Below are positions 1 through 12,187 of a DNA stretch of 64,000 nt, in pieces (the first letter of the stretch is position 1; the number at the start of each line of letters is the position of its first letter). The notes beneath the pieces are model-generated. The model ran no database searches, was not told where the DNA came from, and worked only from the letters and a program-made list of their open reading frames with translations. The DNA comes from Octopus vulgaris (Eukaryota). Where the stretch lies: the NCBI GenBank assembly GCA_951406725.2, contig OX597822.1, positions 6,200,001 to 6,264,000 of the forward strand, in the 5' to 3' direction. Made by a program: the position numbers and the translations under genes.

Positions 1-1917
1 GCCCAAGTATTCTCCCAATTCTCCGGGCTGACCCCAGAGCTATACGGTCGCTACTTGGACACCTGCATAGGCGCCATCTCCCTCTCCTGCAATCAACTCT
101 GTCACTTCATCTCTTTACTCTCTAACTTGTATGCCTCACTCCAATTTACCTCTACCGTCTCTAACACATCGGTTAACTTCCTAGATATCTCTTATCATTG
201 TCCTTATATCTCACTTTTACCACCTCTGCCTTCTTCAAACCCACAGATTTTTACCTCTCCCTGAACTTCTCCTCCACCCATCTCTCCCACACTAAACGGG
301 CCTTTCCCTACTCCCAGTTCCTCCTCCTCTGACTCTTGTGCAGCCGGTACCAGAAATTTGAGACCCACTCCCAGTACCTTGCGCGCCTGTTCATGCATCG
401 AGGATTCCCCTCGACCCTTGTTCAAACCGCCCTTGCCCGCGCTGGTCGAATCCATCGCACCACTCCCCTCTTCTTCCCCACACCAATCCCCTAACCGCAC
501 CCTATTTCCTCTCCGTTTCCACCCCTCCACCCTACACCTTCGTCGGAGGATCCTACGGGCCTTCCGTCGTCTCCAGCTAAGATCCCACTACCCACATCAT
601 TTTCACCAACCCACCCTTGTCCTCCTTTAAACGAGCCCGAAACCTACGCGATCTACTGGTCCGTATCACCTTCTCCTCTTCCCCCAGCCCCACCTGGATC
701 CTTCCCTTGGTCTAGATCCCGCTGCCACACCTGCCCTTTCATCACCAACACCACCTCCCTCACTGGTTCGAACCACAACCAGTGCACTCTCCACATTAGT
801 GCACACTCCTTCTCCTGCACCTCTTCAAGCCTTATCTATTGCATTAGATGTAATCTCTGTAATAAACTCTACGGAGGCTAGACGGGTCGCCAGCTGGCCG
901 CCCGGTTTGCCAAACATCTATGTGATGTTCGGCTACGCACGGACACCACCGTCGCACGTTATTTCTTATTTCTTTATTGCCCACAAGGGGCTAAATACAG
1001 AGGGGACAAACAAGGACAGACAAACGGATTAAGTCGATTATTATATCGATCCCAGTGCGTAACTGGTACTTATTTAATCGACCCGGGAAGGATGAAAGGC
1101 AAAGTCGACCTCGGCGGAATTTGAACTCAGAACGTAGCGGCAGACGAAATACCGTTAAGCATTTCGCCCGACGCGCTAACGTTTCTGCCAGCTCGCCGTT
1201 ATTTCTGCTTGACTAACCACTCCCCCTCTAATATCTCCGTCTCTGTCCTCGCCCTGCCCCACGGATCCACACACACGTGACTTCGCCTAGAACAGAGTTA
1301 CGTTTCCAGTCAACAGATACAAATTCCTCTCCGACTCAATACAACCCCCTCCTCTTAACGACTATCTCTACAAACTTTTTATTTTATCTACTAAATTTTA
1401 TTTGTGATTATCTTATTTTGTCCCCCCTTCCACCCCCTTACTTTTTCATACTCTTACCCCTTCTCCCTTTTTCAAATATTTTTTATATAATTTACTTTCT
1501 CTTGTTGTTTAACTTTTTAAGTGCATTATTTTTTATAATTGTATTAATTTCTATTTTATCCCTTTAATTTTTATTTTATATCTCATTTTTTATCTTGTAT
1601 CTGCTAATTTTTGTATTTTTTACACGTAGTACCCTTCCCCCTTTTTTATCAAGCTTATTTTATTATAGTTTATTTTATTTCTATATACACGCACACACAC
1701 ATACACCCACGTACATATACACACACACGAAAAAATACACGCACCCGTGCACACACATGCGCACACACACATACATGCGCGCACACACACCCGTACAGGA
1801 AGAAGAGGGTCTGCTCGAAACGTTAAACCATCTTTGTTACCCTGAGCGCCTGCTAATACTTTACATGTACCACGTCCTCGGGTTGTTTTTTGTGCTTCTT
1901 CTTCTTTTTTGGGATTT

Positions 1918-1919
<2 letters not shown>
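1..1919 (+). mobile_element. Penelope-like retroelement remnant (RT C-terminus, GIY-YIG endonuclease, 3' pLTR), interrupted by a SINE
   Basis: Manual translation gives YGRYLDTCIG (decayed RYxDD), VNFLDIS, FKPTD..HTKRAFPYSQF..RGFP, a Cys linker SRSRCHTCPF and LIYCIRCNLCNKLYGG*TGRQLAARFAKHL (GIY-YIG). Stops and frameshifts are present. An AT-rich tail carries a hammerhead-like motif at ~1796-1826 and ends at (TA)n. Confidence 0.88.
968..1197 (-). mobile_element. tRNA-derived SINE, family A
   Basis: GGCGAGCTGGCAGAAACGTTAG head, GAGTTCAAATTCC B-box, GTCGACTTTGCCTTTCATCC core and AAGAAATA tail. 10-bp TSD CGTTATTTCT at 958-967 and 1198-1206. Many near-identical copies in the window. Confidence 0.9.
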
Positions 1920-1962
<43 letters not shown>

Positions 1963-1994
1963 ACATATATATGTACACACATACATACATACAT

Positions 1995-2044
<50 letters not shown>

Positions 2045-3399
2045 TTATATATATATATGTATATATATCACAATCTAGGTTAGTTGAAATATGCTTGTCA
2101 CACATATTTCAAAAGGTAATGGTAAATACACTGCCGTCACCGTGGGGAAAATCTCTCTTATGGTAAAAAGGTGTGAAAACTCCCAGTCGATGGATCTGAA
2201 AAAATACCAGTGAATCTCCATCAAATCGTACCTTTGAACAATGAAAAGGAGGAGACGTGTGTGTTCGGGATAATGTAATCCTGGTTGTGTGTTATACATA
2301 ATAAATAGATCGGATGGAAACAGTTGTAATACCATTGGTAACTAAATCTAACCAGGCAGATCTAAACAATAGACCAACAGCAATAAGCCGGTGGATTGGC
2401 CACACTTAAAGCGTCGGATAGAATGCCTTGGGATATTTGCAGCTCTCTGGACGTGAAATTTATCTTTCTTCTTTTGAGGGTCGATAATAGGGTACCAACC
2501 CCAAGCAGTTGCTTCGTGGAACTGTAAGAAGCTCGTAGTGGACACGTGCGTTATTTGCTTCGTCTCTTCCTGCTCTGAGTTCAGATTTCACCAAATTCAA
2601 CTTTATTGTCCGTTTACCGAGGGTCGATATTAACGTAATAATTTCTTGTACAGTTGATGGATAGAACTGTAAGGAAGTCATACCGGATGTATTATGTCAT
2701 TTGCTCCAATTCTTGGCATTCTGAGTTCAAATCCCGTCATAGTCTACTTAACACCGCTTGGCACATTGGGTTTCTGTCAGCAGAGTCCATTTTGCTGCAA
2801 GTATTTTGACGGGTTTCTGGTTTGAGGATACTTTACTCTCTCCTTCCCTTCTAGTAATCTTGGGCCCATGTGACGGTCACTGGCGTTGTCTTTCTCATTG
2901 GCTAAAACATACAAAACATGAAAATTAAATTTCTGTCGGTATGTCTGGCTATCGCATGTCTGTGCGTCGTTTTTTGGTCATCCGGTAATTGGAATCCCTG
3001 CTCTTCAATGAAAAGAATCCAGGTCAATTATAATTATTAATCTTTTTTTTATTTTTTAAAAATTACCTTAGTCATTATATTGTGAATTTTTGAAATATCA
3101 ATTTGCTGTAATTTAGAATACAAAAACCAGGAACAAAGAACGCAACACAAACCTTCAGACACGCTAACAATTCCGACAGTAACTGCTCCAGCAAGATTTT
3201 TATTTCATCGATCACGAGTGGAGAAGAAGCAAAGTTTATTTTGACATAAGTTCAGTTCAGATCTCATGAAACAAAAGCTACAAAGCATTTTATTCTACGC
3301 TCTAAAGACTATTTATTCTCTGTATGGGTGCATTAAGATCCGCCATTCCACAAGAAGCGAAAGAATAGAAACTCACTCTGCTTAGTTATATTTCGGTCA

Positions 3400-3800
3400 A
3401 CACATTACACTCGAGGGGTCATATATTAGGGAGTTATGTGAGCGTTGATCATATCTCTCTCATCCATGTGATCAGATTACCGTTCAACTTGTCTTTGAGA
3501 TTCCGGCCTTTCTGCTTATAATCTCACTGCAGTTCTTATCTATCAGGACCCATTTACGGTAATCCAAACTTCATTCCGGCCTATGCAAATCGATGTATGC
3601 ATATCGATTTGTCTTGGTTAATTCTTGCTTCAGTTACCACCTCCCATCCCATCAATATTTTAGCGAACATCTCCATTTCAAAGATATCCGAGAGTGTGAA
3701 AATGACATAAAAACACGGTTTTACTGTGTTCCGATTCGTGTAGATTATTCTTGAAGACATTTGAGTTCTGCAGCATGGCTCAAGACCGAAAACTTATATA
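3400..3800 (-). pseudogene. Highly decayed L1/Tx1-like LINE RT fragment
   Basis: Minus-strand fragments EARINQDKSIC and GPD..DKNCSEIISR resemble the AKINxxKS and GPDLQxEKNWSEV motifs of Tx1-type RTs. Many disruptions. Confidence 0.4.
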
Positions 3801-4289
3801 TGAAAGTCGAAAGCTGACATCATTGATGGAACAAGCCTGTGGTTCTAAACTGTTTCGGTTAGAGATCATATAATTTTGATGCCCGACTAGATGTCACCTT
3901 TCATAGATGGGAACGAATTTCTGAAACGAAACCGCAAAGGTCCCATTTAGTACGGTTGATAGATTTCAATGATTTTTCCCGTTGAAAACTTAAACTTCTC
4001 CAAATCATCGGTTCTTTATGTAGCACAGCGTGCCCCCGTTTTACAAAATGACATTTTACAAACACCCCCTACTCATGGTTTTTCAAAACTAGCCAGCAGA
4101 TTATTTTAATCAAACATAAGCTAATTTTGTGCAGTGGTTTATTATCTATATTTCCCAGTACTATCCCATCCAGCATATGCCACATTTTAGATATTTGCGC
4201 GAACAAGGCCCCGCTTTATATTACATTTTTATGGCAATTAGTAAATGAGATCATTATATAATACTTTTCATTATAAGCATGAGGCCTGA

Positions 4290-4450
4290 AATATTTTCGG
4301 GTTGGTGGAGAGGAAGGTGGGATAGTCGATTACTTCGACACTAGTGTTCGACTGATACTTATTTCATTAACTTCAAAAGGATGAAACGGCCAAGTCGGTC
4401 TCGATGAAATTTGAACTCAGAACACAAAGACGGGAAGCATTTTGTCAGGC
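4290..4450 (-). mobile_element. Degenerate SINE family A
   Basis: AAAAGGATGAAACGGCCAAGTCGGTCTCGATGAAATTTGAACTCAGAAC matches the family A core. Confidence 0.7.
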
Positions 4451-5273
4451 ATCAGACATAGTTAAGCTCACAAGTAATACAATGTCTTATTTATATTTTA
4501 ATCCTGAAAATGATTTATTTTTCGAAAACGAGTTTAAAATATTAGTACTGTATCCAATTTAACTTTCTGAGAAAAATTACGACTCATCGACGTTCGCAGC
4601 AGACATCAAGTAAGTGCCACTGGGCACTGCTTAACTTCTGCAGCCTTTTCTAGGCTTACAAGACACCACCGCTCGGTTTCTAAACCGGTGCTCTAAATTC
4701 GTTACAGCCTCACCAAAGCGATATTTAGTTCCTATGTACATGTCTACACACCATCAAGTCTTATGTATGTACTCAAATACAGCAATAGTACTTTGAGGCA
4801 GTGTCGACATACATTGTGTAGTATACTTTCAATAAAACTCGAAGCCAAAGGGAAACAACTGCACTGTACCTAAGGCACAGAGAGCTATGCTCAGTAATGC
4901 AGTGAAATCACGCAATGAAAATAATACAGCAAAAACAAAAAAAAAACAAGAAGAAAAATTAATATTTTTTAATGATATTGATACTAATAATTAGTTGAAA
5001 CCTTTGTAAAAGTATGGATTTTTCATTTCTTGGTCTGTTGCTTCTTGGTAATTTTTCGTGCACACATTTTTCTTTGTTGGATGTTATGGGACCATCGTAT
5101 GTATATATGCATCAGATTTCAGCCAATCAGATATAAAGAGTTAGAGGGGAGAGCGGGAGAAGTAAGAGGTGTGTGTATACCTGAGTGGTGTTGATGTGAT
5201 TAAAAGAAATTGGTAAAGATGAGAAGATTGGTAATAGGAGAGAGCGAGCGAGAGAGAGAGAGAGAGAGAGAGA

Positions 5274-5304
<31 letters not shown>

Positions 5305-5674
5305 TGTGTGCGTATGTGTGTAATGGAAGGAAACTAGTGGAATAGAGGATGTAGGAAGTGGAGAGTAAGAAACAGAAGGGAGATATACAAGGAAGTGGCG
5401 GAGAGTGCGTAAACGAAACGTTTGGGTAGGTAAGAAACATACCTATACACCAATGAAGAGAGAAAGAAAGGGCGAGAAAAAGAGAAAGGAGAAAATAGAG
5501 AAGAAACGGAACAAAACAATATAAAGGAAGTGGAATTAAAGGATGAATAAATAACACAAAGGGAAATTTGGAAAAAAACAATAAATAGGAGAGTAAGGAA
5601 AGTGAGCAGAAATAGAAAGAAAAGGGAAATTAATGAGGAAAGATGAATAGAAAGAGACAAAAGGAAAAGAACAT

Positions 5675-6130
5675 GAGAGTGAGAAAGAGAGAGAGAGAGC
5701 GAGAGAGTGAGAGAGAGAGTGAGAGGGAGAGAGTGAGTGAGAGAGAGAATGAGTGAGAGAGAGAGTGAGTGAGAGAGAGAGTGGGTGAGAGAGAGAGTGA
5801 GTGAGAGAAAGAGAGAGTGAGTAAGTGAGAGAGAAAGTGAGTGAGAGAGAGTGAGTGAGAGAAAGAGAGAGAGTGGGTGAGAGAGAGAGAGTGAGTGAGA
5901 GAAAGAGAGAGAGAGTGGGTGAGAGAGAGAGAGAGTGAGAGAGAGAGAGAGTGAGAGAAAGAGAGAGAGAAAGTGAGTGAGAGAGAGTGAGTGAGAGAGA
6001 GTGAGTGAGAGAAAGAGAGAGAGAGTGGGTGAGAGAGAGAGTGAGTGAGAGAAAGAGAGAGAGAGGGTGAGTGAGAGAGAGAGTGAGTGAGAGAAAGAGA
6101 GAGAGAGTGAGTGAGAGAGAGAGGGAGAGC
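5675..6130. repeat. Purine-rich (GA)n/(GAGT)n compound micro/minisatellite
   Basis: About 450 bp of GAGA/GAGT units; it explains the LS/H-rich ORFs. Confidence 0.95.
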
Positions 6131-6695
6131 AGGGAGAAGAGCAAAGAACAAGAAATGTCTTCCGAACTGGTATTATCAATTTTGCGAAATTTCCTTTCTA
6201 TATTCTCTCCTTCGTTCTGTTTCCTTCCTTCGGTTCATCCCTTTTTTCCTTGATGCCTTCCTTGTTCCTTCATTTTTCCTTCTCTCATTATCATATAAAG
6301 GCATGTAAACAAGCATTAACAAACCTATATTGGTAAATATATGCATATGCATGTCTCTACTCCTAATAAATGCATATATTAATATATTACGCCGGGGCCT
6401 AAAATATATAAGCATGTATGTATATATATATGTACACGTCTGTCAATCTGTTTGCCGTTTGCTTTGTCATTCTGTGTGTTTGGGTGTGTGTGTGCGTATA
6501 TATATATATATATATATATACACATACACATATATATATATATATACATCCATAATTCTACATATATAAATACGCACGTATATGCACACCCGCCCACGCA
6601 CACACATACATATTTGTATTTGTGCATGTATATATTTACGACTAAGTGTGATCTTAAATGTTATAATATTAAAACTAATTTTAGAAAATAAGAAC

Positions 6696-6850
6696 GGGCG
6701 TGGCTGCGTGGTAAGACGTTTGCTTTCCAGCTACATGGTTCCGGGTTCAGTCCCACTGCTTGGCACCTTGGGAAAGTGTCTTCTACTATAGCCTCGGGCC
6801 GACCAAAACCTTGTGAGTTGATATGGTAGACGGAAACTGAAAGAAGCCTG

Positions 6851-6944
<94 letters not shown>

Positions 6945-7161
6945 TTGTGTCAGTATTTCTCCCCCACCATCGCCGCTTCACAATCGGTGTTGGTGCGCTT
7001 ACGTCCACGTAACTTATCGGTTCGGCGAAAGGATAGAATAAGTGTCAGGATTTAAGAAGACATAACTACTTGGGTTGATTCATTCGACGAAAAGCCTTTC
7101 AATGCGGTGCTCCAGCATGACCGCAGTCAAAATGACTGAAACAAGTAAAAGAGTAAAAGAA
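6696..7161 (+). mobile_element. tRNA-derived SINE, family B (internal microsatellite)
   Basis: TGGCTGCGTGGTAAG A-box, GGTTCAGTCCC B-box, internal (TA)n(TG)n, tail AAACAAGTAAAAGAGTAAAAGA. Confidence 0.88.
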
Positions 7162-7679
7162 TCACTACTGACCAAAAGGTTGAGTTCTCAGTACTGCAGG
7201 GTAAGGCCGATGTATTGTAAAATCCGCCGTGGTTGCCGTTTAATATTTCACGTATCGGATTCTTCTGGACTCTTCGAATAATTCGTTAGTCAAAAGATGA
7301 AGTCCCAGTTAACATAAGTACTGGCATATATACTTTCGAAACTCCCAGCTTCTAAATCTATACCAATAACAACTGATGCATTAGACTTTGTGAGTAAATG
7401 CCTAAGTGACAACCTGGATAAGCTAGGTTCTTCAGAAAAAAGAAGTTAACCAGCTAACACGCACATTACAAATACAATTTGCAGGTGGAACAATAAAAAT
7501 ATACAAGACTTTTCTCAAGTTTAGAATGTGACATTGCTTTTGTTATCTACATTCAATCTATTTTAGAAACCAGTTCATTCTTCTGATGGAGAATTTTAAT
7601 AATTAGAAAGCATAACAGAATATAGAATGATAGATAGATAAATGGATTGATAGATAGATTGATAGATAGACAGAGGAGA

Positions 7680-8003
7680 GGGCACCTTACGCTCATGAAT
7701 GACCATGCGATTGTACCGAGAGAGTTCCCCTGAAATGCCCATGTCCGGGCCAGGTTGTATATATAGAAGCCCGACAGTTGCCAATACATACCGGTCTCTC
7801 CTCTCCACGCCACCGTGTCCAAGGGAAAGACAAAGACCTTTACAGCTTGGTACGAGTGACGTCGCAAATCATTTCTACAACTGAATGGACTGGGGCAAGG
7901 TGAAATAAAGTGTCTTCCTCAGGAACACAACACGCAGTCCGGTTCAGGAATCGAACTCACTATCTCATGAAGATGAACCCGACGGTCTAACCAATGAGCC
8001 ATG
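7680..8003 (-). mobile_element. tRNA-derived SINE, family D-related
   Basis: The minus strand reads TGGCTCATTGGTTAGA...GAGTTCGATTCC...GTGTTGTGTTCCTGAGGAAGACACTTTATTTCAC, sharing head and core with 50112-50370. Confidence 0.75.
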
Positions 8004-8159
8004 TACATACATACATACATACATATGTATTTGTATTTATATAGAGAGAGTTATCTTTTATCATGTACCTTTTACTTTCTACAGTCATGTGACTGCAGCG
8101 ATGCTGGAGCACCACCTTAAACACACACACGCACACACACACACGAAGACATACATAAA

Positions 8160-8192
<33 letters not shown>

Positions 8193-8623
8193 ACATACAT
8201 GTCTAGAGATTTTGAAGTGATGTACAGATGTACAAGCTGGATCTGGTATGCGGAGCTTTCGACTGGTAGCACTTGCATGTGAAAGTTGTTTGCAAAACGT
8301 GTATATATATATATATATATATGCAGTGTACATTTAAGCACATAAGGGGTAGCCATCATAGGACTGCCTGCACGCTAGAGAGGACAGTTAAATTCCGTAC
8401 CACTGTTAGAGATAAAGATAAAATATCAATGGGATATATAACCGTAAAATGCGTTAAGTTATGCAAATCGATTAAACATGTTCTGTGGAGCATTCATTTA
8501 TAATAGTGACTTTATTTTTCCGTAGGGAGTTAAAATGTGCACTAGGCTGCACAGAAGATCCTAAGCTAAGAATTGAAGCTTGTTCACTGTTTTTTTTTAT
8601 TCTGTCGATGAATATATTGTATA

Positions 8624-8881
8624 TGTATGCACATATATGAGTGTATGTGTGTATATATATGTGCGTACCTGTGTATATGTGAATGTGCGTGTGGGAGTGC
8701 ACTCCAACATCAAATTTAAGCCCTATTTTTAGTGCACGTGATTTATTAATCTCGATTTTTTTTGTGTGTGTTTTTATGCGTCACTAAATTGTACGGCATC
8801 GGCAATGATCCGTTGGGATCTACTCCTTACGCACACGCACACACAAACAGATTGAGTGATATACTCCCACATGTATAAACA
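8624..8881 (+). repeat. Segment A, directly duplicated at 9535-9791
   Basis: About 257 bp near-identical with a few substitutions (TCACTAAATT vs TCAGTAAATT). Confidence 0.92.
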
Positions 8882-9092
8882 CATAAACACGCGCGTGCAA
8901 ATGGCATATACTCTCATACGCCCAAAATTTAAACTGAATTTAATGATATGGTAACAGGAAAATAATATTTTTATTTTCATAGGGATAATTGTCAGGCTGA
9001 AAACACTTGGAGAACCCATCGTATAGAGAGAAAGCGAGAGGAGAGAGTGTGAGAGGTAGATAGATAAGAAAATAAATAGATAGATAAATAGG

Positions 9093-9161
<69 letters not shown>

Positions 9162-9168
9162 CGGTAGT

Positions 9169-9213
<45 letters not shown>

Positions 9214-9347
9214 GAAATTGTGGGGGCGGAAGAATGGTTTTATTGGGTAAAAGAGAGGAGAGAAAATGTAGATTTAACCAGCTAAATTATTGTATACACG
9301 TAATATACCCATGAATACTGGCACTTATATATATATATATATATATA

Positions 9348-9510
9348 TATTGTTATATTTCGGAATGGTCATATTGCCAGTTTAGCCAATAAAAACACAC
9401 GCACTATATATTTGGTGTTATTTTGCTTCAGTGATATTTATTTTTTACATTAATCTTAATCTTATTTCGGCCAAAGTTCTTTCGTCACACTCCTGTGACC
9501 GCATCAGTGG
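9348..9510 (-). mobile_element. PLE pLTR-like terminus with hammerhead-like motif; inverted partial copy at 10159-10307
   Basis: Minus strand reads CCA CTGATGCG GTCACA-GGAG-TGTGAC GAAA GAAC TT TGG. 9348-9494 is the reverse complement of 10159-10307. Confidence 0.65.
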
Positions 9511-9790
9511 TCCTTTGTTTTCTTCTCACTTACTTGTATGCACATATATGAGTGTATGTGTGTATATATATGTGCGTACCTGTGTATATGTGAATGTGCG
9601 TGTGGGAGTGCACTCCAACATCAAATTTAAGCCCTATTTTTAGTGCACGTGATTTATTAATCTCGATTTTTTTTGTGTGTGTTTTATGCGTCAGTAAATT
9701 GTACGGCATCGGCAATGATCCGTTGGGATCTACTCCTTACGCACACGCACAAACAAACAGACTGAGTGATATACTCCCACATGTATAAAC

Positions 9791-9867
<77 letters not shown>

Positions 9868-10078
9868 CATGTGTGTGTGCATATACATATACATGTAATT
9901 CAACAAAGCAATATCGTAAAATGTTATGAGAGTAAAAAAGGCAAACATAAAAATTAGAATTGGAAAGTTGAATATATGTATGAATTATGTATGCATGAAT
10001 GAATGTATGTATGTGCGTGTATATGTGTGCGTGTGCATATACATATTGGTATTTTTGCTGAGTTCTCTGTTTCACATG

Positions 10079-10159
<81 letters not shown>

Positions 10160-10360
10160 AGGAGTGTGACGAAAGAACTTTGGCCGAAATAAGATTAAGA
10201 TTAATGTAAAAAATAAATATCACTGAAGCAAAATAACACCAAATATATAGTGCGTGTGTTTTTATTGGCTAAACTGGCAATATGACCATTCCGAAATATA
10301 ACAATATCTGTTTCAACACACGACTTCACATAAAAAATCTTGCACAACAAATATTTAAAC

Positions 10361-10408
<48 letters not shown>

Positions 10409-10477
10409 ATAGACATGCACATCTATTCATATTTATATACATATATGTACATGTGCATGTGTTTTTCCATCTATCCC

Positions 10478-10533
<56 letters not shown>

Positions 10534-10987
10534 CCTATCTATCTGTGCATATATATATATATGCACACACAAACACACACACATATATACATACAAACAC
10601 TGTATTTGCATTTGTATTGCCATCAATTTTCTTCCCTTCCTAACCATAACCCAACCTCACTCATCTTCCAATCTCTAGCTAAAGAGTACACCATATTTGG
10701 CAACACAACATCCTTCGAAGGAGGAGAATATTTAGTTTATGATTGATATAAGCTATCAATTTGTTTTATGTAATGGAATAATTTTGATTGATTGTTTCTC
10801 CTTTCAATTCCACATCTATTTCTCCATCAAGTTTTACCACCTCTTTATTCATGCCTTATATTTCCTGATCTTTCAGAAGACATTCAACTTTCCAATTCAA
10901 ATTTTTATGTTTGCCTTTTTTACTCTCATAACATTTTACGATATTGCTTTGTTGAATTACATGTATATGTATATGCACACACACATG

Positions 10988-11046
<59 letters not shown>

Positions 11047-11145
11047 GGAGCAAGCGCTAATCCGAATGATATGATATATATGTAAAATGTAATATATAAA
11101 TAAATATCTACAAATATGAACCATCTGATCTGATTACCTCAATTT

Positions 11146-11193
<48 letters not shown>

Positions 11194-11311
11194 CGATGTA
11201 TTATGTATGCATGAATGAATGTATGTATGTGCGTGTATATGTGTGCGTGTGCATATACATATTGGTATTTTTGCTGAGTTCTCTGTTTCACATGCTATCT
11301 ATCTATCTATA

Positions 11312-11376
<65 letters not shown>

Positions 11377-11449: not shown

Positions 11450-11515
<66 letters not shown>

Positions 11516-11575: not shown

Positions 11576-11880
11576 AGTCTGTTTGTCTATGTATTCATCT
11601 ATCAATCTATCCCCCTGTCTCTCTCTAGCTCTCTTTTGTCTGGTATGATGCCACTTACTTGCTCTCTCTCTCTCCCTCTCTCTCTCTTTGCCTCTCACTC
11701 TTTGTTTCCCTCTCTCTCTGTTTCTCTTATTTGGCGAATGCCAATTTTCAATTTATATAATGAATTCCGCTCTATGCGTATCTATGGGGCTAACACTCTT
11801 ATTCAAACAAGCAAACACATACACGCATAGGCATACTTACATTCATATATGTACACACGCATATATATATAAATGTAGAT

Positions 11881-11980
11881 ATACATACTCCTACCAGTAC
11901 TTCACCTCGTATACGGAATTATACATACCTACTGCCCCTATACATGTCCACATATGCATACATATGAATATATATACATA

Positions 11981-12054
<74 letters not shown>

Positions 12055-12138
12055 TATGTATGCATATGTGGACATGTATAGGGGCAGTAGGTATGTATAA
12101 TTCCGTATACGAGGTGAAGTAGTGGTAGGAGTATGTAT
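11881..12138. repeat. Long inverted repeat centred on (TA)n
   Basis: About 90-bp unique arms (CATACTCCTACCA...CATATGAAT / ATTCATATG...TGGTAGGAGTATG) around a (TA)n spacer. Confidence 0.93.
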
Positions 12139-12139
12139 G

Positions 12140-12187
<48 letters not shown>

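Follow-up and report, generated by a model that had tools for sequence, protein, structure and literature searches.

Flank-derived DNA between the two arms of a young Penelope-like element insertion in Octopus vulgaris

How does DNA from both sides of an insertion site come to lie inside the insertion itself? In a window of 64,000 nucleotides from Octopus vulgaris (OX597822.1, positions 6,200,001 to 6,264,000; coordinates below are those of the window unless a locus is named), pairwise alignments show three pieces of copied DNA, A (direct), B′ (inverted) and C (direct), enclosed by two 3′ ends of a young Penelope-like element (PLE) of the Neptune type that face outward. We are highly confident that the observation is real. 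The order X′–A–B′–C–X had been proposed in a sequence-only reading of the window, and pairwise alignments bore it out with small corrections to the coordinates.

The block and the sources of its middle

The features of the block and of its surroundings are as follows.

8624 to 8885, + strand: assembled source of A (alignment, probe)
9326 to 9349, no strand: left half of the (TA)n target tract, read from the sequence; its final ATAT is common to the short end of the left arm
9347 to 9537, − strand: left PLE arm X′, a 5′-truncated 3′ end that stops at the short end, without the tail (191/191 to the natural copy L042)
9469 to 9513, − strand: minimal type I hammerhead motif (fold prediction)
9535 to 9795, + strand: piece A, direct copy of 8624–8885 (alignment, probe, allele in run X1); TGT is common with the left arm
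9792 to 9863, no strand: (TA)5(CA)10(TA)n linker, in which the two halves were presumably sealed; B′ shares the TA portion of the linker
9821 to 9973, − strand: piece B′, inverted copy of 10882–11034 (152/153; probe found twice in the genome)
9974 to 10159, + strand: piece C, including a lead-in of 10 nt; it copies 11200–11368 directly and has (TATC)20 at its end (alignment, probe)
10159 to 10361, + strand: right PLE arm X, which starts within hammerhead stem II and stops at the long end (205/205 to L042, including two shared TA bases)
10308 to 10361, + strand: 54-nt tail, present on the right arm only (comparison of family ends)
10362 to 10399, no strand: right half of the (TA)n target tract (sequence)
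10882 to 11034, + strand: assembled source of B (alignment, probe)
11200 to 11368, + strand: assembled source of C (alignment, probe)

The segment 9347–9495 of X′ is the exact reverse complement of 10159–10307 in X (149/149). The inverted arrangement of the arms was thus read correctly at first, but the right arm, which had been ended at 10307, runs on for the 54 nt of the PLE tail to 10361, and the left arm extends to 9537. Since both arms are identical to the L042 copy, the insertion is very young.

Piece A differs from its upstream source at 5 of 262 alignment columns, all of them at or after 9682 (E 1e-125 when the window is compared with itself by BLAST). B′ shows a single difference from the reverse complement of its source, as does C over 9984–10152, where the difference falls within the TATC tract and the portion 9984–10080 is identical to the source (97/97). 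The three sources lie 440–1000 bp from the insertion site. When the 2.8-Gb genome was probed with 30 nt of A, of B and of C, every probe had exactly two matches, all inside the block locus, and the A–B–C unit is therefore not a dispersed repeat. These results indicate a non-element insert that duplicates DNA near the target; they support the earlier view that the middle was copied from local flanks, and they exclude the objection that the whole X–A–B–C–X unit exists dispersed elsewhere.

The junction alignments agree with the proposal that the pieces were joined through microhomology or microsatellites. Some of the internal junctions do fall in simple repeats, but not all, as had been stated: X′ and A have just TGT in common, and B′ and C have AT in common, with 10 nt there that deviate from the source of C as assembled. 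The A|B′ junction is a 72-nt linker, the only such tract in the window, and its (CA)10 is absent from both assembled sources and from the rest of the window. Between C and X the shared sequence is C, or CAG if copying moved by slippage to the later TATC tract, whose end is at 11515. Neither for the (CA)10 nor for the 10 nt that lead into C does the assembly contain a source, which counts against the explanation that we favor below.

Could the substitutions in A serve, as had been argued, as evidence against an assembly artefact? The comparison with public contigs covered the left part of the block, with the simple repeats beside both junctions there skipped, and none of the contigs spans the block; neither a junction of the block nor an empty allele turned up in them. 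A 566-nt contig from run X1, the best run, equals the inserted A over 9578–9770 with 0 differences, continues for 243 letters and then enters 9216–9315, a continuation that identifies it as the source locus of A in another haplotype. At this source locus, 4 of 4 testable sites (4 of the 5 differences in A) have the state of the inserted copy. These four differences are thus a natural allele and provide no argument against an artefact; by the same allele, post-insertion decay and polymerase error were rejected as their cause. Run X1 may be the window's own sample and so does not count as independent support; runs X2, X15 and X4 gave no junction evidence, and missing cover in them proves nothing. 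The intervening stretch of the X1 contig is 112 nt shorter than in the window; the shortened part is the GATA-tract stretch at 9051–9213, a difference of 28 units.

The haplotype that supplied piece A is not the one that the assembly shows upstream. On the plain reading, the insertion sits on a haplotype of the X1 type and the assembly mixes two haplotypes. We lean toward A having been copied in cis in an assembly that is a haplotype mosaic; copying from the homologous chromosome seems unlikely, and later recombination or other causes of the allele of A seem more unlikely still.

Elsewhere in the window, 11838–12181 consists of 172-nt arms, 90% complementary and without a spacer, centered on a TA tract, which is possibly a fold-back or the symmetry of a simple repeat.

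The element family and its usual insertion form

To which family do the arms belong? The window itself contains only element 3′ ends, and the evidence for an open reading frame comes from L042, where, as in L056, full-length copies lie in tandem with a period of about 4.6 kb. On the minus strand of L042 (1213–5148), a 1312-aa open frame carries YVDD, a CX4CX2C linker and GIY-YIG, as well as the motif VYxIxC...CxxxxxxYVGET. Pfam matches to RVT_1 (E 6e-4) and GIY-YIG (E 3e-4) were both below the curated cut-offs, weak but rightly placed, and a scan of the whole L042 protein against Pfam gave no match. The protein has 178 homologues, nearly all unnamed, the best of which is 99% identical to an Octopus vulgaris protein. 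A single frame with reverse transcriptase (RT) and, at its C terminus, GIY-YIG (in L042, at weak Pfam scores), together with pLTR units in tandem (L042, L056) or inverted with a one-sided tail (40 of the 43 end pairs described below), is what characterizes endonuclease-positive PLEs, and the full-length copies support the reading of the block as a PLE insertion. The Neptune clade is recognized by a CX2-5CxxC linker between RT and endonuclease and by microsatellite targeting, as set out in the relevant sections of PMC8557442 and PMC3846280. In the octopus family, CX4CX2C stands just before GIY-YIG and TA-rich DNA precedes 110 of 114 short ends, and by the linker of its predicted protein the element is a Neptune-type PLE. 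The frame of L042 also has a long Asn/Ser-rich stretch ahead of the RT that recalls the Asn-rich inserts described for rotifer PLEs in PMC3846280. The Penelope families of Octopus vulgaris have been counted in PMC13282606, whose account of them, in the part consulted, does not describe insertion structure.

The hammerhead motif consists of stem I GG-A-CCA/UGG-CC, the core CUGAUGC, one unpaired G, a 6-bp stem II and GAAA, with predicted cleavage after CUU; its fold has a z of about −1, which is not significant alone. The window copy has both stems, GAAA, the NUH triplet and the unpaired base that precedes G10.1, as given in the description of the motif in PMC4209133. The core differs from C3 U4 G5 A6 N7 G8 A9 by a C at position 9, in the window copy as in the young subfamily. 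Older relatives mostly have CUGAUGA, and 691 matches have a base other than C at this position. The young subfamily (window 9501, and family-wide) thus combines C at core position 9 with the triplet CUU where older relatives have A and CUC; judged from these sequences, an expanding PLE may carry a weakened ribozyme. Rfam gave no match at the gathering score in the window, and no hammerhead stood among 76 weak matches in 9200–10500. A 32-nt pattern from the hammerhead region had 1384 exact matches in the genome, and those listed mostly occur as a minus match followed closely by a plus match.

Both termini had been called hammerhead-bearing. The left arm does hold the whole motif, but the right arm begins inside stem II, as the sequence-only reading itself had correctly noted. 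Hammerhead cleavage as a cause of arm truncation was not supported: of 51 ends within the 121 nt around the predicted cleavage site, 6 were observed at the site itself against 4.6 expected. Given this lack of enrichment, the start of the right arm in stem II is probably chance, and the hammerhead appears incidental. Truncation points among 159 ends show peaks, with 23 near reference position 540, 17 near 610 and 32 at 350–379.

Copies of the family stop at either of two fixed points, which lie 54 nt from one another, and are followed by (TA)n. Counted genome-wide by exact patterns, there are 2427 short ends and 1608 long ends of the main form plus 263 of a minor form. Among the 100 short and 90 long ends listed on C1 up to 185 Mb, 43 neighboring pairs lie within 20 kb, and 40 of these consist of one short and one long end facing outward; the 104 listed ends without a listed partner are explained largely by the exactness of the patterns.

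We sampled the long ends listed on C1 together with 40 stretches from C2–C4, leaving out the window, the duplicate L106 and the second ends L102 and L183, and kept 158 long ends. A short partner arm accompanies 114 of them, which makes the inverted short and long pair the normal form; the other 44 have no recognizable short partner within 8–10 kb, and not all of these are explained. The 114 pairs are joined by microhomology in 80 cases, bluntly in 9, through a filler of up to 40 nt in 21 and through a longer filler in 4, so that 110 of 114 are joined directly or with at most 40 nt. The lengths of the two arms correlate (rho 0.63, n = 110). The insertion in the window is hence the family's standard pair, set into a TA tract that it splits, and its right arm extends to 10361.

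A minimal insertion recurs in the sample, with a short arm of about 47 nt and a tail of 27–32 nt joined in an A-rich stretch (L097, L101, L107, L112, L117, L150, L162, L165, L166 and others). Its arms do not overlap on the RNA, so that one RNA could template both.

Locally copied DNA at other insertions

Is copying of nearby DNA a habit of the family or an accident? A self-match abuts the inner end of the long arm at 7 of the 36 C1 loci that are not directly joined (the window included), compared with 218 of 20078 random anchors (1.1%), and a second set contributes two further candidates near the junction. After inspection, unique local copies at the inner junction were left at 3 of 158 loci besides the window (L118, L132 and L108), a count that covers templates within the fetched flanks and would miss those more than 8–10 kb away. 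Against the 1.1% background, and for 35 to 50 non-direct loci, the post hoc binomial p is 0.006–0.017. At L118, 174 nt of direct copy touch both arms with a 6-nt microhomology; at L132 and L108, inverted flank copies of 202 nt and 40 nt, respectively, abut one arm only. These three loci and L066 all copy the flank behind the 3′ end of the abutting arm, an own-side rule that thus rests on four other loci, in one of which (L118) the single piece touches both arms.

Local templating as the usual mode of the family is rejected by this count of 3 in 158, and another three-piece, two-sided case was not found among the 158 loci; the window is thus an extreme case of a rare outcome. L061, L147, L152, L196 and L202 were discarded as local copies, the matching DNA being a dispersed repeat, of low complexity or derived from the element. 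L045, L073, L082, L105 and L113 were discarded likewise, their pieces matching other loci, being of low complexity or element-derived, or lying off the junction. Short fillers of 8–40 nt at 10 loci had the element or nothing as their source, with no convincing source in the flank.

Two of the loci have larger duplications. In L066 (4843–6201 and 6657–7988), a locus identified by its short end, the flank behind a single short-end arm also stands in front of the arm as a direct copy of 1.36 kb (95% identity), which is either a very long target duplication or a templated copy. L113 (about 1072–8787, oriented) has a 2.6-kb, 99% inverted duplication around the long arm, partly made up of other repeats.

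The middle of L070 comes from much farther away. Its 493 nt (L070:4438–4930; C1:62866157–62866649) match with 100% identity a portion of a dynein heavy-chain exon that lies 6.3 Mb distant, namely the C-terminal exon at L216:1501–1993 (Pfam Dynein_C, E 7e-77). The piece is joined through microhomologies of 3 nt and 6 nt and has the same sense as the short arm. A jump onto host mRNA is possible; since the piece lies within one exon, RNA and DNA templates look alike.

Mechanism and relation to known systems

What sequence of events could produce such a block? We think it probable that a young PLE inserted through two break-primed cDNAs, which were extended on nearby DNA before they annealed, leaving two arms bridged by flank copies. 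The GIY-YIG nuclease would cut both strands of a (TA)n tract, and each 3′ end would prime RT at its own fixed site on the RNA, the two sites being separated by 54 nt, giving the short and the long arm. Normally, the two cDNAs would anneal through a few bases. Here, the end of the left cDNA would have paired via TGT with upstream A and copied it, while the end of the right cDNA would have found the TATC tract downstream by pairing via C or CAG, and would have copied first C and next, after a change of strand, B. Sealing of the two halves would finally have taken place in the TA/CA linker, and each arm would thus be followed by DNA of its own side. Direct copies need a duplex template, and an inverted copy would fit snap-back on a resected strand, as in templated end joining. 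As to the copying enzyme, our first guess, from general knowledge, is a host activity of the polymerase-theta type, and our second is the RT of the PLE.

Could the templates have lain on the other chromosome? A more far-reaching idea, which we regard as doubtful, is that cDNA-tipped break ends search for templates like recombination intermediates, that they invaded the homologous chromosome several times and that the bridge is a three-piece copy of the other parent's alleles. If this were true, PLE insertions would record inter-homologue, multi-template repair in the germ line, and small allelic segments, at times distant exons, would move between PLE arms.

The favored course, with two separately primed cDNAs, departs from the sequence-only reading, which had a single polymerase hop from X′ to X. 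Such one-pass template jumping, with the PLE RT copying RNA or DNA while it makes one strand that runs from X′ over the three pieces to X, we consider improbable. It would account for the microhomology at the joins, the dynein piece in short-arm sense would fit a jump onto host mRNA, and host DNA is found between pLTRs in rotifer PLEs in the passages of PMC3846280 that bear on this. However, the three pieces call for templates from either strand and either side, which no single transcript can supply; the dynein piece lies in one exon, so that it does not discriminate between RNA and DNA templates; and the fixed long end of the right arm marks a priming event of its own. With fixed, outward 3′ ends on the outside of both arms, one short and one long, a one-polymerase hop fits less well.

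An equally improbable course is that a directly joined inverted pair formed first, that this palindrome broke at its center and that host end joining added the flank copies. Long palindromes are fragile, and the substrate is common, given the 110 of 114 pairs joined directly or nearly so. On the other hand, no difference from the family copy is seen in the 396 nt of the two arms, which leaves little time for a second event, and the flank copies of L132 and L108 occur with one arm, where there is no element palindrome. Least of all do we credit a chimeric read or consensus error that put flank copies between real arms: the differences in A are the alleles of another haplotype whose GATA tract is shorter, so that haplotypes may be mixed, and 0.78 of the sampled words are found in the best public run, a figure attainable without the junctions, but the three pieces are in order and come from both sides, the arm junctions show microhomology, both arms are complete with canonical ends in (TA)n, and similar structures occur at L118, L132 and L108, all of which speaks against it.

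How does the favored course, with two cDNAs extended on flanking DNA, compare with systems already described? Polymerase-theta or microhomology-mediated end joining leaves direct and inverted copies of break flanks with 1–6 nt of microhomology. By analogy, the octopus break ends would differ in carrying retroelement cDNA and in having pieces of 150–260 nt. Among PLEs, inverted 5′-truncated copies and a one-sided tail are known from endonuclease-positive elements in what PMC8557442, PMC3846280 and PMC4209133 report on them. The inverted pLTR units described there share with the block their (TA)n targets and opposite-strand minimal hammerheads a few hundred bases apart, whereas their tail of 30–40 nt is shorter than the 54 nt of the octopus family. 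The account of rotifer PLEs in PMC3846280 includes host spacers captured between pLTRs, which in the passages concerned are not traced to the flanks, while the octopus bridge is traced to both. For the Poseidon PLE of Anolis in vitro, PMC11167929 describes, in its relevant part, two RT start sites that define the tail and the cutting and extension of both AT-rich strands. The two families are alike in having two fixed 3′ ends whose spacing is the tail; the octopus family differs in its strict genomic pairing (40 of 43 long with short) and in being Neptune-type by its cysteine linker. According to the corresponding discussions in PMC11167929 and PMC8557442, the way in which a PLE insertion is finished once priming has occurred remains to be worked out.

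Our literature search, which covered main texts of mostly non-subscription papers, returned no description of flank-templated bridges between PLE arms, and a term search of bioRxiv 10.64898/2026.07.22.740005 returned no relevant passage. The form of PLE termini and flank-templated junctions for L1 are thus already known; new are the three-piece, two-sided mosaic, the frequency estimate and the allelic origin of A. As a single locus, the block is a striking one-off scar with no sign of function. The wider interest lies in the family, which is very young and whose about 1,900–2,400 exact ends form a large natural record of insertions, with strict long and short pairing, microhomology joins, correlated arm lengths and a flank-patched class of roughly 2%. 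These properties support a twin-priming-like model with central repair synthesis, one that can be tested by statistics within one genome.

The closest parallel is human L1. In the portions of bioRxiv 10.1101/2024.08.27.596794 that treat these events, 22 templated insertions were found in a set of 3,598, with pieces mostly below 250 bp and templates typically within 15 bp of the site. Twin priming, with two cDNAs joined by microcomplementarity, would be common to both systems, and both show a correlation of arm lengths (R 0.76 in L1, rho 0.63 in the octopus PLE) and a rare class that copies nearby DNA (the 22 instances in L1, 3 of 158 in the octopus). On the other hand, the second primer of L1 anneals at variable internal sites, whereas both priming sites of the octopus PLE are fixed; the three octopus templates, on both sides and 440–1000 bp away, also lie much farther off than those of L1, which counts against our explanation. 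The block is likely a rare repair scar of a kind known from human L1 rather than the product of a dedicated capture system.
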